Notes: generated by a model not told the origin, from the sequence alone. Positions 55,631 to 64,000 are shown, counted from the stretch's first letter. The stretch is 64,000 nt of DNA from an uncultured virus (IMG/VR IMGVR_UViG_3300022700_000138) (IMGVR_UViG_3300022700_000138), one strand, 5' to 3'. Translations and numbers: made by a program.

Positions 55631-57085
55631 ATGCGATTCAAACCCGGAGACATAATTCAGCTAAAGCAAGCTGCTATACTCGATGGCACTATAGAAGGTA
55701 CCACAGTCATACTGGAAGCCTACTCAAATGCCGTATTTGTAATAATTGACACAGATGAACATGACAACAGAATTTTCTTCGATATAAACCACGAGGATGT
55801 AACAAATAGATATGTAATTGCAATAAGGTGCTGCATTGACTTAGAAGAATTTGGCGAACATAACATTGATATACTAGTTCCGCAAGATCATGAGCCCCGA
55901 CAACGCACAAGTAAAAAGGAAAAACCAATGCGTAAAGCCAGTCCATTCCGTCTAAGCTTCTACTCTGTAAAACAGGGACGTAATCGCCCCAGTGCTGACA
56001 TGTTCCAGCTAGTGGCATCAAAACTGGCCGATGTCCATGACAAACCAGCGTGGAAGCTTCCACAAGACGGATTGTTTGGACCTAATACTACCAAGGTAGC
56101 AAAAGAAATCCAATCTCACTACGGACTTTCACCAGTGGACGGTATTATAGGTAAAGGCACCTGGCGTGCCATTACTCCTGACTTGGGAGCCTGGAGGCCA
56201 CCGCTCAGACTACGCATCAGTGAGTGTCAGTGCTCTTGGGAAGCAGGGGCTGCTGGATATGGGTACTATGGGCTCATTGAATGGGAAGGTTGGTGGAATT
56301 ACGGTATTTGGAATGTTAATCGAGGAAGTGCAAGATCCCTGGTTCGAATGGGTGGTGCAGATCATTTAATATCAAAGATAGGCACTGCAGATGCGATGGG
56401 GACTGATAGTCAACCGTACGCCGGTCGGGATTTAGCAGCAGAGGTCGCGCACTGGTTCAAAACAATGGGAAAGAACGTGCAAGTAGGTGAGTACTTTGTG
56501 AACCACACACTAAAACCTAGCCTGCTAAACTTGGTCAAACTAGGATGGGATGTTCAGCAACTAGGATTTTCGGGTGAGGGGGAGATTCACAATTTATCAA
56601 CCAAAACCGTTGATCAACTCGATGAGTGTCTGAGATCTATAGATCCGTTTTATGAGCGCTTGGTCCTTCAAGCTTGCGACATTACAGTCAACTCTGGTCC
56701 GGGTAACTACTTTCCTAACAAATCCCCCCGAGCTTGGGGTGGACACGGAGATGAGGCGTGGCCTGAGGACAAGCTCCCCCCAAAGGAAGAGGTCAAAAAA
56801 GTGTTTGCCAAGACCTTTGGTGGGGAAATTACGGACGACTACACCTATCTGAAAGCGAACCATCCCGACGACACCTATCGAGACGCGCTGAAAAGGTCCC
56901 TCGATGAGCTATGTTCTGATGACGAACAGCGCATCAATTTGATTGGGGAACTTCAGGCTCGATGCGTTATTGGAAAATGGAGAGGTGACGTAATCAGACG
57001 TCGCCGAGCAGTTGCCTGGAAAGAGGGACACGCCTTTCAAGGGAGCTTCTACTGCATGGGCGAGCATTTTGGAATAGGAGTTTAG
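55631..57085 (+). CDS. Peptidoglycan-binding-domain protein, possible endolysin
   Basis: DGLFGPNT...IQ..YGL..VDGIIGKGTWRA PG-binding motif followed by an unassigned domain. Confidence 0.65.
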   Translation: MRFKPGDIIQLKQAAILDGTIEGTTVILEAYSNAVFVIIDTDEHDNRIFFDINHEDVTNRYVIAIRCCIDLEEFGEHNIDILVPQDHEPRQRTSKKEKPMRKASPFRLSFYSVKQGRNRPSADMFQLVASKLADVHDKPAWKLPQDGLFGPNTTKVAKEIQSHYGLSPVDGIIGKGTWRAITPDLGAWRPPLRLRISECQCSWEAGAAGYGYYGLIEWEGWWNYGIWNVNRGSARSLVRMGGADHLISKIGTADAMGTDSQPYAGRDLAAEVAHWFKTMGKNVQVGEYFVNHTLKPSLLNLVKLGWDVQQLGFSGEGEIHNLSTKTVDQLDECLRSIDPFYERLVLQACDITVNSGPGNYFPNKSPRAWGGHGDEAWPEDKLPPKEEVKKVFAKTFGGEITDDYTYLKANHPDDTYRDALKRSLDELCSDDEQRINLIGELQARCVIGKWRGDVIRRRRAVAWKEGHAFQGSFYCMGEHFGIGV

Positions 57086-57638: not shown

Positions 57639-58007
57639 ATGTACATGACTCTACATGATTTTCTCCACGCTAACCAATTGTGTAACAATTCTTTTGTACA
57701 GCATGACAGCTTTCTGGAGCTATATTTACGTATTGGTCCTAGATACGTGGATATATCCCACAAGTTAGTGTACTTGGATCGAGTTCTGCAGATAGCCCGG
57801 GTGGCAGCCAAAGTCCCTAAGACTGGCGCACTGCGTCAATTGGTTGGTGACGTCGACAGGATTTCCGGGTGTAAGTTACCTATATATATAGAGAACCTGT
57901 ATAATAGTGCAGCCGCACAAGGGATATTACGCTCCGATCTGGGCTTCATGGAAGTAGACCAAAAAAGTCCACATGCTACTTGCCTTTTGCGTCCTGCGGT
58001 GCTATAG
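57639..58007 (+). CDS. Hypothetical protein, weakly GNAT-like
   Basis: QIARV...PKTGALRQLV...IYIEN...LGF pattern. Confidence 0.4.
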   Translation: MYMTLHDFLHANQLCNNSFVQHDSFLELYLRIGPRYVDISHKLVYLDRVLQIARVAAKVPKTGALRQLVGDVDRISGCKLPIYIENLYNSAAAQGILRSDLGFMEVDQKSPHATCLLRPAVL

Positions 58008-58185: not shown

Positions 58186-59307
58186 ATGCGAACCACAACT
58201 TTTTTGTTCCTGAGTCTGTTTCTGGTAGCGTGTGGTACTACCGACACGCCCACGGACAACACAAACAACCAGAACACAAACACCAGCGACCCGGTCTGCG
58301 GGAACGGTATTCTTGAACCCGGGGAGGCCTGCGACGACGGAGCAGACAACTCTGATGTTGCTCCCAATGCCTGCCGCACAGACTGCCGAGAACCCTCTTG
58401 CGGAGACGGGGTCATTGACAGTGGCGAAGCCTGTGACGGTAGTGAGCTAGCTTCTAATAGCTGCGTCGGGCTTGGGTACACTAAGGGGACGCTGGCTTGC
58501 GACCCGATTACCTGTGAATACGACGTCAGAGACTGCAGTACCTGCGGTGATGGCGTTGCTGAAGGAACGGATACCTCGACAGTAGGATACGAAACTTGCG
58601 ACGGGAGTGATCTACGTGGTAAGGATTGCATTTCTATCGGGCAAGCAATGGGTACTCTTGCCTGTAATTCGTCTTGCGAGTGGGATATTTCCGGCTGCGT
58701 GGGAGGGGGCCCAGTTTGCGGAAACGGGATCGTAGAGGAGGGCGAGGAATGTGACGACGGAAACCACACCCTAACCGACAACTGCCCGGACGGACCGGCC
58801 GGAACGTGTCTCAGCGCGTACTGTGGGGATGGGTATGTTCAGGCTGGTATCGAGGGCTGTGATGATGGCAACGGTACCAATGAAGATATCTGCCCGGATG
58901 GCCCAGGTGGAACCTGCCAGACGGCAAGCTGTGGCGATGGGTTCGTGTTTACCGGAGCCGAAAACTGTGATACAGCACTGGACCCTTACTGTCACACTGA
59001 CTGCGTGGCACGTTGTGGAGATGGGACTGTGGATACTCAGTTCGGTGAGCGCTGTGATGACGGGAACAACGTAGACGACGAGGATTGCTACTCCGATTGC
59101 TCTGGCTACTGCGGCGACGCCATTGTTCACGATGGGACTTGGGACGAAAACGTCCAGGCTGTATTGCCAGATCATGGAGAAGAGTGTGACAGAGGTCCTG
59201 TTGGCGGAATTGCCTGTAGTGCAAGCTGTACGCTAACCGATTGTGGTAACGGATCCTGCTTTGAGCCAGTAGAGACACCGGACAATTGCCCGCAAGATTG
59301 TCCGTAG
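58186..59307 (+). CDS. Lipoprotein with Myxococcus cysteine-rich (DUF4215-like) repeats
   Basis: Lipobox LVAC; many CG(N/D)GxxxxGExCDDGN repeats; ends CPQDCP. Confidence 0.85.
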   Translation: MRTTTFLFLSLFLVACGTTDTPTDNTNNQNTNTSDPVCGNGILEPGEACDDGADNSDVAPNACRTDCREPSCGDGVIDSGEACDGSELASNSCVGLGYTKGTLACDPITCEYDVRDCSTCGDGVAEGTDTSTVGYETCDGSDLRGKDCISIGQAMGTLACNSSCEWDISGCVGGGPVCGNGIVEEGEECDDGNHTLTDNCPDGPAGTCLSAYCGDGYVQAGIEGCDDGNGTNEDICPDGPGGTCQTASCGDGFVFTGAENCDTALDPYCHTDCVARCGDGTVDTQFGERCDDGNNVDDEDCYSDCSGYCGDAIVHDGTWDENVQAVLPDHGEECDRGPVGGIACSASCTLTDCGNGSCFEPVETPDNCPQDCP

Positions 59308-59369
59308 TAAACGGCGTCCAGAGGTAGATGGTACCTTGACAACAGAATAGTGAACGATGCGAAGTTTTC

Positions 59370-59442
59370 GGGCCTGTAGCTCAGTTGGGAGAGCATCGCC
59401 CTTGCAAGGCGAATGTCGCTGGTTCGATTCCAGTCAGGTCCA
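59370..59442 (+). tRNA. tRNA-Ala(TGC)
   Basis: Cloverleaf, loop CTTGCAA, G3:U70 pair, TTCGATT T-loop; CCA not encoded. Confidence 0.93.
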
Positions 59443-59600
59443 CAAAATAACCAGGTAGCTGCGCTGCATGGTAGCTGCTCTAGAAGATGCGCAGGGTGTG
59501 TGGGTTATGGTGCTAGGATGGCGCTGCGGCATGGATTGATCCTCCTCAGCCTCAGTACTGGAGTACCCAGTCGGTGAATCCGATCTGCACCTATTCACCT

Positions 59601-59830
59601 AGCTGTCTTTGATAATGAGTGAATTAACTCGGTAAGACTCCGGGCTGGTTTTAATGTTTGAGCCCTGCGTAACGTAAACTGCTCGCCGAAGATCCGTCAA
59701 GGTAGGTCTGTGGCTTACTGGCAGGCGCGAAGCGGTGCGGGGCCGCGTGAGGGTAACCTCTCCCCGTGGTTGGTACGGACAGGGTTGGCAGCTATCCTAT
59801 CCCTCTGACCTTTAAATTATCAAAAGCTGC
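59601..59830 (+). ncRNA. Putative structured ncRNA domain of unknown family
   Basis: Closing helix TTTGATAAT/ATTATCAAA; nested AGCCCTG/CAGGGTT and TCCGT/ACGGA; GAGG-GTAA-CCTC GNRA hairpin. Confidence 0.5.
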
Positions 59831-60046
59831 ATCTTTGAATCGGGTTTGGGCGACCGTTCCCAAGACAAAAAACGGTCGTATTTACAATCCCGTACTACAT
59901 GATCCGTACTAGGATTGTCTTCCTCCGTGAAGCGTGTGGTACGCATCAGAGCCCTGGCCTTTAGCGGTAGGTCATTAGGTAACACGTGCGGCCGAAGTGT
60001 TATCAAAACCGTTAGGCAGGAGATGGTAATTCCGCTCCTGTCGTCT

Positions 60047-60172
60047 GGGTCTTTAGCTTGAAACCTTGGGCTTCCAGGATTAGCTCTCCACGAAAGCTCA
60101 GGGTGGACAAAGCGCTCTGTCTGGGTTCCTAGGCCAGATGGAGAGAACTGGTTCGAGTCCGGTATGGACCCA
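60047..60172 (+). ncRNA. Expanded tRNA-like RNA
   Basis: GGGTC/GACCC acceptor, GCTT/AAGC D-stem with ~50-nt insert, 10-bp anticodon-position stem, ACTGG-TTCGAGT-CCGGT T-arm. Confidence 0.65.
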
Positions 60173-60259
60173 AATCCCGGAAGAGATCAGTAGCCTTTTC
60201 CGAGGCGAACAAAAAGCTACTGAGGTTGTGGGTTCTCCAAAAGCCCTCACCCGGCAAAA

Positions 60260-60363
60260 TAGGATCAGTTGTCTTGTGCAGGATAGGTGGGAGATGTTGA
60301 ATCTTGGTCGCAAGGCTGAGAGGAATGACCCCTGAGATACCACCCATTGGCTTTTGATTGCTA
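60260..60363 (+). ncRNA. Free-standing 23S rRNA L1-stalk (H76-H78)-like RNA
   Basis: GTGCAGGATAGGTGGGAG...TTGAA-[8-bp stem, GCAA loop]-GGA...TGAGATACCACCC, collinear with the bacterial 23S L1 stalk as recalled. Confidence 0.8.
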
Positions 60364-60381
60364 ACTATTTTGTCGGTGTTT

Positions 60382-60464
60382 GGAAGGGTGGCCGAGAGGT
60401 CGAAGGCGGTGCCCTGCTAAGGCATTGAGCGAAAGCTCCGTGGGTTCGAATCCCACCCCTTCCG
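60382..60464 (+). tRNA. tRNA-Ser(GCT)
   Basis: Loop CTGCTAA, variable arm GAGC-GAAA-GCTC, G discriminator. Confidence 0.92.
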
Positions 60465-60523
60465 CTTTTCTTTACCTATATGGAGGGACGGTCTAAGTCC
60501 CCTCGTTTAGAGGTAGACACTCA

Positions 60524-60597
60524 GGGCCCATCGCCTAGTTGGTTCAAGGCACTCGGCCCATACCGGATTATCGCAGGTTCGAATCCTGCTGGGCCCA
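60524..60597 (+). tRNA. Aberrant tRNA with CAT (Ile2/Met-like), 6-nt anticodon loop
   Basis: Perfect GGGCCCA/TGGGCCC acceptor and T-arm; anticodon arm CTCGG-CCCATA-CCGGA. Confidence 0.75.
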
Positions 60598-60609
60598 ATA
60601 ACCGAATGT

Positions 60610-61357
60610 TGTTTTGTCCCTACGTCTCCAAAGCGCGCAGGAGACCTCTGGATGGACAGGCTGATGATCCTCGGTCGTGTTGCTAGTTCCTTCCCGTTAG
60701 GTTGCGCCAGGCGGGCTGTAGTTGAGCCGGGAAGACGACAGGCAGCGATAAAGCCAAAAAACGAGGGTCGCTTATTTTATGACCGTTTACCACATTGATT
60801 CAGGACTCTTTAAAATCCGGGCTGCGGCTGCGGGGAGAGAGTCACAACTGAATTAGATGTGCCACGCAATACTCGGACACTGGTTGTCGTGGGCTTAGGA
60901 ATATAGCTAAACAGTGTTCCGTGAGAGGTGGATAGCCTCAGTAGGTAGATTACCCTGGTTTGTATCCTACGAGGTCCCCTCAATAAATGGGACTAACCGG
61001 TCTGCGTAGAACGCTGCTCGCCAGTAGTGCTGGTCGGGGAGGTAGGTGAGGCACTGCGTAGGAACAAGTGAAGTGATGCCGACCAGCTACGGTTCATTGA
61101 AGTTTGGGCGTCTTCGGTGAACAAGAGATCTTAGGTAGAAACGCCAAAGGATTGGGTGAGGCTACAGTGTAAGCTCAATCCACGAGGGTAGTGGTGGACA
61201 CGCCTGCCTCAACTGCTGCCCGTTTTTTGGTTAGATAATTGGAGGTCATCTAGGCTGTGGCTCGCAGAACCTAGAGAGGCGACTGGTAGGAAGGTAGACT
61301 AACGAGCTTGGCACTGGGTAGATGAAGCCCAGGCGACTAAAACTGCCTACCGCCTCC
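60610..61357 (+). ncRNA. ORF-poor run of structured RNA domains of unknown family
   Basis: Consecutive helices, e.g. 60666-73/60762-69, 60791-803/60848-61, 61029-37/61079-87, 61149-57/61173-81, 61241-46/61352-57. Confidence 0.5.
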
Positions 61358-61371
61358 GTTTTGCGTATAAT

Positions 61372-61449
61372 GGGAGAGTTTGCGGAGAGGTCAGTTTGCC
61401 AGTGAAGGTAGAGATCACTGCGTGGGGTTAGAATCCCCCGCTCTCCCCA
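61372..61449 (+). ncRNA. Degenerate tRNA-like RNA
   Basis: GGGAGAGT/GCTCTCCC acceptor, CAGTGA/TCACTG stem, GGGG-TTAGAAT-CCCC T-arm. Confidence 0.55.
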
Positions 61450-61510
61450 TTGTATCCGCGAGAGGCGTCTCTACATTTCCTCTCGCGGATATTTTCCCCT
61501 AGGTGACGAA

Positions 61511-61732
61511 ATGGATCAAGACGAAGTAAATCGCAGATTACTGGACGCAGCCCGTGAGGGTCAGTGCGATCACGAGTATCCAGGACCCTCTTTCGATCCG
61601 GAAGAGGCACGCGGTATGACCGCCGCGCAGGTACGCGAGCGGCGGCCTCGCTTCTACTGTCCTTGCACAAAGTGCGGAGAGCACTCGATTGCCTATGCTT
61701 CGTACGAACACTATATTGCCGGTGATTGGTAG
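61511..61732 (+). CDS. Small Cys/His-containing hypothetical protein
   Basis: AGGTG SD; CDH...CTKCG...HYIAGDW. Confidence 0.65.
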   Translation: MDQDEVNRRLLDAAREGQCDHEYPGPSFDPEEARGMTAAQVRERRPRFYCPCTKCGEHSIAYASYEHYIAGDW

Positions 61733-61746
61733 ATGGTTTGTATTAT

Positions 61747-61929
61747 GCTCCACAGCACGAGACCAGGCGGCCTTGACGAAGGATGACCCATCTGGTGCGG
61801 AGCTAATGCCTAGTTGATACAAAGATTGGTGATGTTCAGGACGCTGAGACGAGTCAATCTCCAACGAAATTGTGTCATGAGCCACACGTCGTTGGAACTA
61901 GGTGCCGGGTTGAATTCCCGGGTGGGGCT
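61747..61929 (+). ncRNA. Large tRNA-like RNA with branched insertion
   Basis: GCTCCAC/GTGGGGC closing stem, CCGGG-TTGAATT-CCCGG T-arm, GCCTAGTT/AACTAGGT and TCCAACGA/TCGTTGGA helices. Confidence 0.6.
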
Positions 61930-61934
61930 GTTTT

Positions 61935-62007
61935 GCCAGTGTAGCTCAGTTGGTAGAGCAGCTGATTTGTAATCAGCTTGTCGCGGGTTCGACTCCTGTC
62001 ACTGGCT
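61935..62007 (+). tRNA. tRNA-Thr(TGT)
   Basis: Cloverleaf, loop TTTGTAA, TTCGACT T-loop. Confidence 0.95.
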
Positions 62008-62135
62008 TTTTCTTGACTACTAGAAGAAATTATGCTTATTGTAGATAGATCAGAATATATTGCATGGTGCATATCTGTTTGTAATATATGGATAGTAGAT
62101 ATTGCACTGCAATGGAACTGCAATGGAGAGGCGTC

Positions 62136-62423
62136 ATGGACATTGATCGAAAAGCTGACAAACTAGAAACTCCTGTTTGCCCACGCTGTGGCAACGAAAT
62201 GACCCCGACCATAACAGAAGCCGTGTATCACGATGGTCAAAACATTCCAGTTAGAGGTGGTGGCCTTCAAACGTTCGTACCCATTGCGCACCGCCACTGC
62301 TTTCAATGTGAGCAATGCACTCCACCACGCGCAGTGATTGAAGTCCCTTATACTGCAGAAAGAGACTACTGCGTCTGGAGTAACAACCATGAACCCAAAC
62401 GAGACACTAACGAAAATTCGTGA
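62136..62423 (+). CDS. Zn-ribbon hypothetical protein
   Basis: CPRC and CEQC; ATG 62136 with GGAGAGG SD. Confidence 0.55.
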   Translation: MDIDRKADKLETPVCPRCGNEMTPTITEAVYHDGQNIPVRGGGLQTFVPIAHRHCFQCEQCTPPRAVIEVPYTAERDYCVWSNNHEPKRDTNENS

Positions 62424-62616
62424 AGTGGTGAACCTTGTTCGGTTACCGCTGAAATGGTTAATACCTGGGCTAGGCAGGATCCCTTTGGACACGATGAGGT
62501 AAACCGCCGCATTTGTGTTGAGGCCCGCGCCAAGCGTTTGGGTTTCTGGGGGTCGTACGAAAAGTGCGACGGTGAGGGAGTTATTTACCCGACTGATAAA
62601 GCTCAGGTGAACTTGA

Positions 62617-62991
62617 TTTTGTGGATGCTGCATCCGACACCCTCCGTCCGGAGCAGTGGCAGAATCCACCGAAGAACGTCACCAGCACACGAACAAAAAG
62701 ATCGCGTTCAATCGGTTGGTGAAGACGAAAGAGTTTCAGAATTGGGCTCGGTTGCAAGCGGCAGCAGTAGAGCAAGGCTACCGTAATATCGAAGAGAAGG
62801 TCGAAAAGTCGATGACGCCCAACAACCTGAAAGTAGAACACGTAACGACTTACACTTGTGACTCTTGTGGTAGGTCGGAAACAGTTACTTCTACGGATCC
62901 TCTTGACGTGCCTACTTGGTTGGTGTACAGTGGAGAGGATCCCCGAAAGGTAGAGCAACACAGATGTACTGCCTGTGAGAGCAGGAAATGA
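62617..62991 (+). pseudogene. 5'-truncated peptide chain release factor-like (RF-1/ArfB domain) gene lacking GGQ
   Basis: IRHPPSGAVAESTEERHQHTNKKIAFNRL matches the post-GGQ part of RF-1 domains; in-frame TGA at 62614 and 62608. Confidence 0.6.
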
Positions 62992-63239
62992 GCAAGCGTG
63001 CACTAAGGCGACACCACCGTCGGAGGCTTTTCCAAAAGCGCAGACGCTACTGGTCTAGTTTGTCTGATCATCCGAGGATGCTTCGTGTTATAGCTAAAAC
63101 ACCCCAGAGATGTTCTTGTGTTATGTGTAGCGGTAGCGCAGGTCGGAAACACGGCGAGGTTACACTACAGGAGCGAGCGGCCGAAATGGACGAAGAAGAA
63201 CAAATCTCTGCTCATATAGTGAGTGCGGAAGAAAAATAA
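62988..63239 (+). CDS. Small basic protein with CSCxMC motif
   Basis: RRHHRRR...TPQRCSCVMC...VTLQER; ATGA overlap with the upstream stop. Confidence 0.65.
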   Translation: MSKRALRRHHRRRLFQKRRRYWSSLSDHPRMLRVIAKTPQRCSCVMCSGSAGRKHGEVTLQERAAEMDEEEQISAHIVSAEEK

Positions 63240-63244
63240 AATAA

Positions 63245-63319
63245 CGGGGCGTAGCGCAGTCTGGTCAGCGCGCCTGGTTTGGGTCCAGGATGTCGGAGGT
63301 TCAAATCCTCTCGCCCCGA
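63245..63319 (+). tRNA. tRNA-Pro(TGG)
   Basis: CGGGGCG/CGCCCCG acceptor, loop TTTGGGT, TTCAAAT T-loop. Confidence 0.95.
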
Positions 63320-63633
63320 ATGGTGCGCAGCATACAACTCGGTATTCATGCCAATCTCCTGTTCCTCGTTGGAATTGCGAAGTGGTTTGGCTGCGTACCT
63401 TTACTGAGAGTCAGTGGTCATTGAGACCTGCTAGGTGCCTCAATAGTGGAGACGCAGTGAGTGTCTCCCAGATCACTTCATTTGTCTCACCTAAGTAAGT
63501 GAGGCAAATTGAGTGTGGCTGGGCATGCCATGCTCTCCTTACACCTGGGCAAGTGATTAAACTGCCCACTTTTTGACCTCATCGGGCCACCCCAATATTG
63601 CTACGTGGTCAGAGGAGAGACGCCATCATTATC

Positions 63634-63661
63634 TTGACATTTGAGTCTAGCTTGGTACAGT
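63634..63661 (+). promoter_or_regulatory. Sigma70-type promoter with extended -10
   Basis: TTGACA-N16-TACAGT with TGn immediately before the -10. Confidence 0.6.
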
Positions 63662-63715
63662 GGTAGGTGAGCTAGTCAACGTGGTAGCAATTTTAACGTG
63701 TAGGAGAGGATCATA

Positions 63716-63913
63716 ATGGACGCATCCCAACTCATCAGATTCGGGGAAATGTCTTTTCTGTTTGCCTTTTCCTTGGGTGGTATTTACTGGACGCTGTTGG
63801 TGCCGCTGGTTCCGGTCGTCAGCAGGTCAGCGTCGACGATTGGTGCAATGAGCACTATGATTTATTTGGCAAAAAGTTCGGAGTCGTCAGGTTTCCATTC
63901 GATGGGTACGTAA
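63716..63913 (+). CDS. Small hydrophobic hypothetical protein
   Basis: AGGAGAGG SD, 65 aa. Confidence 0.4.
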   Translation: MDASQLIRFGEMSFLFAFSLGGIYWTLLVPLVPVVSRSASTIGAMSTMIYLAKSSESSGFHSMGT

Positions 63914-63963
63914 CCTTCTCTATTGTTCGAGTTACTGACTGACGACGTAGGAGGAGCTTCAAA

Positions 63964-64000
63964 ATGGATCCAAACGTGTACCTTACGACCATGCGCGAGA
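63964..64000 (+). CDS. Partial CDS (MDPNVYLTTMRE...)
   Basis: AGGAGG SD, runs off the window. Confidence 0.5.
   Translation, partial: MDPNVYLTTMRE

Follow-up and report, generated by a model that had tools for sequence, protein, structure and literature searches.

The stretch of 64,000 nucleotides analysed here, hereafter the window, derives from an uncultured virus (IMG/VR IMGVR_UViG_3300022700_000138) and is part of a 163-kb metagenomic contig of a jumbo myophage. Towards its end, from position 59370 onwards, five tRNA genes are interspersed with segments poor in open reading frames (ORFs), and one of these segments carries at 60255-60372 a self-closing copy of the L1 stalk of 23S rRNA, which the sister phage G001 has kept by way of compensatory changes. 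An original prediction, made with no database search, had described this island as a collection of translation-apparatus look-alikes and as a candidate RNA system. Such look-alikes are indeed found, namely the L1 stalk, tRNA-like elements, the remnant of a gene for a GGQ protein and, in G001, a piece resembling the GTPase-associated centre (GAC). Furthermore, the spacers are more than junk sequence: at least four modules (the L1 copy and those termed B2, B4 and B5) recur in related phages with compensatory pair changes. The reading that we favour, with a probability of roughly 0.55, is that of a tRNA/stable-RNA region as in phage T4, consisting of a mosaic of separately folding plus-strand RNAs among five tRNAs, one RNA of this mosaic being predicted to bind the host ribosomal protein uL1 or tRNA elbows. 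The island is viewed as a mosaic because its modules vary in order and content from one phage or strain to the next.

The L1-stalk copy, already claimed in the original prediction, is borne out by three methods: blastn, cmscan and a consensus fold with compensatory changes. When the first spacer was compared by blastn with 5,426 E. coli genomes, 23S rRNA alone was matched (33 genomes at E ≤10), the best match of the copy being to E. coli 23S nt 2109-2200 with 73.9% identity and an E-value of 5e-4. With cmscan, a 201-nt search matched LSU_rRNA_bacteria positions 2135-2206 (39.7 bits, E 5.1e-11), with agreement at most, not all, highly conserved positions of the bacterial large-subunit (LSU) consensus; this covariance match was filtered out of a 5-kb scan and was seen when the 201-nt stretch was searched alone. 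In the consensus fold of the window, G001 and E. coli sequences, 10 of the 29 pairs of the L1 domain carry compensatory changes, among them a G-C to A-U replacement in the L1-binding helix. A terminal stem, absent from rRNA, closes the copy on itself. The element matches helices 76-78 in both sequence and structure, and both T-loop regions largely retain their residues. It does not reach the gathering score of 50 for a full LSU rRNA gene, the match covering 72-92 nt with unrelated flanks. Together with the hairpins upstream, window 60193-60368 corresponds to positions 1639-1814 of the G001 record L019 (72% identity over 145 nt, E 2e-14), where the copy proper spans 1700-1812.

With regard to its distribution, the phage-type L1 pattern matched G001 alone in IMG/VR and was absent from one genome each of 185,579 prokaryote species. 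No description of a phage-encoded copy of the L1 stalk or of another rRNA domain was found in full-text literature searches, subscription journals lying outside their coverage. The copy is not located in an rplK/rplA-type leader, tRNA-Ser standing downstream. A Ribosomal_L1 gene was found neither among 76 window ORF queries nor in five relatives' records, so that any L1 partner of this RNA would be the uL1 of the host.

Relatives of the phage were reached by way of protein profiles. Scans of IMG/VR with single proteins found no close relative, GenBank phages match the island at its tRNAs only, and the endolysin-like protein encoded at 55631-57085 has no tblastn match in GenBank phages. This protein has 28 homologs (34-64% identity), and a profile made from endolysin homologs led to seven metagenome loci and to the IMG/VR contigs G001 (221 kb) and G002 (260 kb), a topoisomerase profile leading to G005 (350 kb, complete, with terminal repeats) and others. 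The metagenome loci L002-L008, adjoining an endolysin homolog, are devoid of the island. Only four distinct phages carry at least one module, and the covariation alignments hold two to four sequences. The neighbouring endolysin-like protein of the module-sharing phages is just 41-53% identical.

Across the module copies, stems vary and loops stay invariant. The B2 stem differs on both sides between the window and G001. B4 has a homolog in G001, window 61101-61247 corresponding to L019 813-980, and shows compensatory changes in 6 of 21 pairs across three sequences. The covariance model R2, built for B4, matches three of five relatives' records, those of G001 and G005, which served to build it, and that of G002, which is new (E 1.9e-11). 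A gapped B4 pattern hit three stretches of IMG/VR, belonging to G005, to G002 and to a contig of 60 kb that shares an identical stretch of 5,480 nt with G002, with no hit among 185,579 prokaryote species represented by one genome each. B5 occurs twice in G001, window 61240-61363 corresponding to L019 1308-1431 with a second copy at L019 210-347, and 12 of its 34 pairs are compensatory across three sequences. Its model R1 matches one of five relatives' records, that of G001, whose two copies (E 2.5e-46 and 4.4e-44) are builders of the model; a 15-mer from B5 hit 29 IMG/VR stretches and is real only at two G001 loci (L035 and L036). No Rfam family matches B2, B4 or B5. When 58800-64000 was scanned permissively against Rfam, the five tRNAs were returned and otherwise sub-threshold noise only, and the two long spacers scanned separately gave nothing. 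The island is thus more than a set of known Rfam families and non-conserved decayed tRNAs, since conserved modules outside Rfam are present. The case for selected structure in the L1 copy and in B2, B4 and B5, the last three recurring in one to three related phages with compensatory pair changes, is judged from these small numbers to be good but not statistically closed. Together with the tRNA-like RNAs, B2, B4 and B5 are candidate new RNA families. All features of the island are collected in Table 1.

Table 1. Features predicted in the island (window positions; L019 is a record of the relative G001; z, fold z-score)
Feature	Position	Strand	Remarks
tRNA-Ala(UGC)	59370-59443	+	ARAGORN and Rfam, 70.8 bits
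Spacer modules A1-A3	59444-59841	+	ORF-poor, strain-variable; no Rfam match, no clear homolog in relatives
Module A4, hairpin group	59842-60095	+	~91% identical in variant contig; z -2.86
tRNA-like element with T-arm 60147-60163	60096-60176	+	Weak acceptor stem, 5-6/7 pairs
Conserved hairpin pair ahead of L1 copy	60176-60254	+	60193-60260 matches L019 1639-1703; z -2.11
Free-standing 23S rRNA L1-stalk copy (helices 76-78)	60255-60372	+	blastn, cmscan, consensus fold
tRNA-Ser(GCU)	60382-60465	+	ARAGORN and Rfam
tRNA-Met(CAU)	60524-60597	+	ARAGORN and Rfam; 50 bits, lowest of five
Spacer B1	60598-60920	+	ORF-poor, no homolog found; promoter-like site inside (60787-60816)
Module B2, conserved hairpin with invariant 3' single-stranded motif	60921-61004	+	Matches L019 581-664
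Module B4, 9-bp hairpin with internal loop, second stem with conserved loop, U-run	61118-61236	+	Model R2
Module B5, three-way-junction RNA with invariant loops	61236-61366	+	Model R1
Aberrant tRNA-like RNA	61372-61447	+	8-bp acceptor stem, 4-bp T-arm, long central hairpin replacing anticodon arm
Terminator-like 14-bp hairpin, then short U-run	61452-61492 (61452-61499 with U-run)	+	z -6.19
Small ORF, 73 aa	61511-61732	+	No Pfam family; no homolog in fetched relatives
Spacer C, hairpin and orphan T-arm (61905-61921)	61733-61934	+	Just ahead of tRNA-Thr
Orphan T-arm hairpin	61905-61921	+	T-arm search
tRNA-Thr(UGU)	61935-62007	+	ARAGORN and Rfam
Small zinc-ribbon ORF	62088-62423	+	Homolog in G001 tRNA region, L019 8415-8633, 37% identity
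GGQ/RF-1 domain and zinc ribbon gene remnant	62617-62991	+	Overlaps ORF 62454-62786
Small arginine-rich ORF, 83 aa	62988-63239	+	No Pfam family
tRNA-Pro(UGG)	63245-63319	+	ARAGORN and Rfam
Spacer D, strongly folding, non-coding	63320-63630	+	63400-63540 z -3.86; no homolog found

The five canonical tRNAs pass the RF00005 model with 50-71 bits against a gathering score of 29. Where the original prediction counted four normal tRNAs and one aberrant tRNA, ARAGORN and Rfam both recognise five normal ones, and a separate aberrant tRNA-like element lies at 61372-61447. Its description of the island as largely non-coding is about two-thirds right: four stretches are ORF-poor, namely 59444-60381 (938 nt), 60598-61510 (913 nt), 61733-61934 and 63320-63630, and roughly 2.8 of the 4.2 kb are non-coding, but small ORFs, four or five over the island, are present in 61511-61732 and 62088-63239. 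The GC content amounts to 52-54% in the island vs about 45% upstream.

Orphan T-arm hairpins are a hallmark of these phage regions. A search for a 5-bp stem with a T-loop-type 7-nt loop on both strands of the window found seven T-arm hairpins, all on the plus strand inside the island, five of them in tRNAs and two orphans; in the relatives, orphans make up 8 of 14 in the first 9 kb of G001, 4 of 8 in the 6 kb around B4 in G002, and 2 of 3 in G005. The acceptor-stem search for these orphans gave results mostly within chance, and since a random position offers 7/7 pairs in 19% of cases, only some of the acceptor stems convince. The element at 60096-60176 is collinear with G001 L019 1557-1583, and changes found in a variant strain keep its T-stem paired. 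In the aberrant RNA (61372-61447), all seven of the seven acceptor pairs are Watson-Crick and the fold z-score is -3.35; it falls short of a tRNA, scoring 22 bits against tRNA-Sec (gathering score 47), and is called by ARAGORN only at -ps80. A tRNA-like element follows a B5 copy both in the window and in G001 (L019 342-427). In all, three tRNA-like elements are recognised, the two orphan T-arms (60147 and 61905) and 61372-61447.

Variation between strains was assessed with related contigs from two DNA runs (X1 and X2) of one study, which cover parts of the island. One variant contig matches 59331-59443 and 59842-60235 with 36 differences and 4 gaps; between these two parts, unlike sequence replaces 59444-59603, the segment 59604-59646 is kept, and 18 other letters replace 59647-59841. 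Another variant contig joins 61731 to 61928. Modules are thus gained and lost between strains, given that variant contigs replace or skip island stretches. In the hairpin 60016-60041, two double compensatory changes (60017/60040 and 60018/60039) keep the pairing. Among the substitutions listed for 59842-60235, 21 predicted pairs are hit, of which two changed on both sides and nine changed on one side still pair, and seven substitutions fall at unpaired positions. Relatives differ in arrangement as well: the first 2.6 kb of G001 are likewise ORF-poor and hold homologs of several window modules, but the B modules stand ahead of the L1 unit, whereas in the window the L1 unit precedes the B modules with two tRNAs in between.

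According to the favoured reading, the blocks would be transcribed from host-type promoters (TTGACA, ~17 nt, TA-rich hexamer) and the transcripts cut by RNase P, RNase Z and RNase E of the host into stable small RNAs, with the tRNAs, tRNA-like elements and A/U-rich spacers acting as cutting marks. Promoter-like sites (TTGACA, 16-18 nt, TA-rich hexamer), which are consensus matches only, occur at 60787-60816, 62013-62042 and 63634-63661, and TTGACA promoter-like sites precede the ORFs of the window as well as the equivalent RNA blocks of G002 and G005; a TTGACA hexamer (59336-59341) lies 29 nt upstream of tRNA-Ala. The 61452-61492 hairpin looks like an intrinsic terminator closing the second RNA block; it was missed by a consensus scan owing to its 13-nt loop.

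Isolated L1-stalk fragments bind L1, which represses its own operon, and L1-rRNA recognition is interchangeable among bacteria. The phage L1-stalk RNA would bind free host uL1 and, alone or with uL1, may dock onto elbows, either those of tRNAs or that of the adjacent tRNA-like element. As an outcome, the feedback of the uL1 operon and the uL1 content of ribosomes would be disturbed, or tRNA-shaped RNAs would be held. In this way the phage may make RNA decoys or scaffolds for components of the host's translation machinery, a role that the original prediction assigned to the processed products of one polycistronic transcript. As for B2, B4, B5 and the tRNA-like RNAs, the likeliest reading is that they, too, bind proteins or tRNAs. 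For the stalk within the ribosome, docking of the tRNA elbow through a double T-loop module is described in a published account (PMC3664808). The phage copy is similar to the 23S stalk in whole-domain sequence and secondary structure, in most of the conserved positions and in the double T-loop regions, but it lies outside an rRNA gene, in a tRNA region, has its own closing stem and is only ~74% identical to its E. coli counterpart. If the L1-stalk RNA does bind uL1 or tRNA, phages can manipulate translation with rRNA-derived decoys, and the copy would be a small, naturally occurring RNA with which uL1 or tRNA elbows could be captured.

Genes for tRNAs, tmRNAs (transfer-messenger RNAs), ribosomal proteins and a few unexplained stable RNAs are all known from phages. 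In layout, the island is closest to the tRNA cluster of phage T4, in which non-tRNA small RNAs, the RNAs C and D, likewise lie among the tRNA genes and are probably released by tRNA-processing enzymes. The island has many more modules and, in addition, rRNA look-alikes, the two regions being likened by layout and not by their sequences. A published account (PMC9697503) refers to RNAs C and D of T4 as 'of yet unknown functions'.

A more specific proposal, which we put forward tentatively, is that a clade of jumbo phages makes free-standing versions of the two mobile stalk RNAs of the ribosome, the L1 stalk (window and G001) and the GAC (G001), and that these and the tRNA-shaped RNAs are decoys that would soak up host uL1 or uL11 or capture tRNA elbows and 3' ends, the effect being re-tuned host ribosomes, a blunted L11-dependent stringent response, or distracted tRNA/rRNA nucleases. 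The second rRNA look-alike involved lies between B4 and B5 of G001 (L019 975-1070) and resembles 23S helices 43-44, the L11-binding GAC, with 90% identity over 30 nt to 23S 1059-1088. Its best E-value against the whole E. coli collection is 0.06, and the LSU model matches it with 16.4 bits (E 0.007), the second hairpin being enlarged by 51 inserted nt; this evidence is weaker than that for the L1 copy. The GAC motif was searched for in the window and not found, and no other rRNA look-alike was detected in spacer B against E. coli or in the fetched G002 and G005 regions. Were the decoy proposal true, it would represent a phage counter-measure built from rRNA domains, none of which is described in the literature searched.

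Several findings weigh against a mosaic of RNAs kept for a function. Sliding z-scores of minimum free energy (MFE) do not separate the island from flanking coding DNA, so that the reality of the modules rests on comparison, and the values for the L1 copy (-0.17), B5 (-1.10) and B4 (-1.63) are unremarkable. Modules are present in so few distinct phages that the support from covariation is thin, and the two to four sequences that provide it also served to derive the structures. Among the substitutions listed in the strain comparison, from which 31 changes are missing, 10 of the 21 hit pairs break the single-sequence MFE pairing. The first T-loop of the G001 L1 copy departs from the rRNA consensus. 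The L1 copy itself is present in two of the four module-bearing phages, its model R3 matches one of ten relatives' records (G001, a model builder), and the one complete relative genome has none; being found in just that one record of ten, it must be dispensable within the clade. Finally, there is no good -10 box upstream of tRNA-Ala.

The weak z-scores, the L1 copy missing from nine of ten searched relatives' records and the modules that come and go between strains and phages would also suit neutral debris, that is, decayed tRNA genes and an rRNA fragment from illegitimate recombination, without function in a genome large enough to tolerate them. Orphan T-arms with poor acceptor stems resemble tRNA wrecks, the frequency of chance 7/7 acceptor matches points the same way, and a broken GGQ gene lies in the same island. 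However, the L1 copy, B2, B4 and B5 are kept across phages whose neighbouring protein has diverged to 41-53% identity, with changes concentrated in compensating pairs; loops remain invariant where stems vary, the L1 copy has gained a stem that closes it, and B5 recurs together with the tRNA-like element that follows it. We therefore regard debris as an unlikely explanation for the island.

Slightly less probable still is that these are cis-acting attenuators: the L1 copy and B4 would, in response to uL1 or tRNA, govern read-through into the tRNAs and genes that lie downstream, after the manner of ribosomal-protein or T-box leaders. The L1 copy ends only 10 nt upstream of tRNA-Ser, a stem with a U-run ends most B4 and B5 copies, and rRNA mimicry is the usual logic of ribosomal-protein leaders. 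Such mimics seem indeed closest in logic to the island: the L1 operator of the L11/L1 operon is likewise an RNA outside the ribosome that copies the binding site of a ribosomal protein. It is, however, a minimal helix and loop on a ribosomal-protein mRNA, whereas the phage has a complete stalk of its own, the full helix 76-78 domain far exceeding known L1 operators in size, and no ribosomal-protein gene lies downstream or nearby. Rfam yields no T-box or leader match at E ≤5-10, and the T-box covariance model in particular has no match over 58800-64000 or in the two spacers alone. Furthermore, the U-run is missing from the G002 copy of B4, and the module order is shuffled between phages, leaving no fixed regulator-target pair.

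One large multidomain RNA of the GOLLD/ROOL type, acting as a single particle, is improbable. GOLLD and ROOL are phage-associated structured RNAs that adjoin tRNAs and form multimeric cages, and the ~0.9-kb ORF-poor blocks next to phage tRNAs, with their many multibranch domains, invite a comparison with these RNAs, which the original prediction mentions. Such kinship was not supported: neither these nor any other large RNA is matched in Rfam (E ≤10 over 58800-64000, E ≤5 in the two spacers alone). In addition, GOLLD and ROOL each have one conserved large fold, but the island is modular and variable, its modules being reordered, duplicated or missing among relatives and strains, which fits one conserved global fold poorly. 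Least of all can the 59.9-60.2 kb stretch be taken for a phage tmRNA, a reading that we reject: ARAGORN at -ps90 proposes one at 59901-60171, with a 16-residue tag ending in Leu-Ala, but makes no such call at default settings, at -ps80 places 'tmRNAs' on top of true tRNAs too, and is not seconded by Rfam, while the 'tag' region undergoes non-synonymous changes in the variant strain alongside the two double compensatory changes that preserve its hairpin (60016-60041), and so evolves as a hairpin.

The release-factor remnant of the original prediction was recovered as well. Its 62617-62991 segment aligns with residues 35-151 of a 151-aa GGQ protein of G002 (55% identity, E 5e-51). The G002 gene, located in a tRNA region (L020 13751-14206), is intact and codes for an RF-1 domain with GGQ (73.6 bits) followed by a C-terminal zinc ribbon. 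In the window, the GGQ segment is missing, two in-frame TGA codons (62608-62616) lie just upstream of the remnant, and PF00472 gives 13.4 bits (E 0.075) against a cut-off of 35, so that the window gene is broken or truncated. The G002 protein may serve the phage in ribosome rescue or as a peptidyl-tRNA hydrolase factor. It shares the RF-1 domain with GGQ of ArfB/ICT1-type proteins; the window copy differs from these by the absence of GGQ and by the in-frame stops, and the phage family adds the C-terminal zinc ribbon.

The arginine-rich ORF next to the remnant has counterparts in layout. Small arginine-rich ORFs, starting with Met-Ser followed by basic residues, stand after RNA blocks in the window (62988-63239), in G005 (L133 10409-10664) and in G002 (L139 12820-13180); tblastn shows no homology among the three, and their products may be RNA-binding proteins. 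A shorter ORF of 9-10 codons, starting with Met-Lys-Arg and followed by a conserved stem, was noticed in G005 (L133 11000-11125), G001 (L019 3231-3370) and G002 (L139 13860-14074). It lies just ahead of a tRNA gene in G005 and G001, and the G002 copy stands between tRNA-Gln and tRNA-Val.

Further observations concern individual RNA elements. In tRNA-Met(CAU), the base 5' of the anticodon appears, on reading the sequence, to be C where U is usual. The second hairpin of the pair ahead of the L1-stalk copy (60221-60260) represents a motif of ~35 nt with a single copy in the window and three in G001 (L019 1664-1700, 2161-2198 and 2424-2460), each ahead of a different RNA module, and may be a processing or assembly signal. 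Pairing of the B4 loop with tRNA 3' ends was also considered but given up, the loop sequence being different in the G002 copy.

Almost all long ORFs of the window lie on the plus strand. The products encoded include a tail sheath (37% identity to phiKZ-like jumbo phages), a family A DNA polymerase, both topoisomerase II subunits, a Dam-type methylase and a dCTP-deaminase-like protein. A gene for a 122-aa protein stands upstream of the RNA/tRNA region both in the window (57639-58007) and in G002 (L139 10473-10826, 45% identity), the G002 copy lying directly 5' of the promoter-like site of the RNA block. At the start of the G001 contig (L019 1-200), tandem direct repeats of ~90 nt directly precede the RNA modules and may mark the end of a genome or stem from assembly. 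Directly upstream of the island, window 58186-59307 codes for a 373-aa cysteine-rich protein with three DUF4215 repeats, which shares 67% identity with its counterpart in metagenome locus L003.

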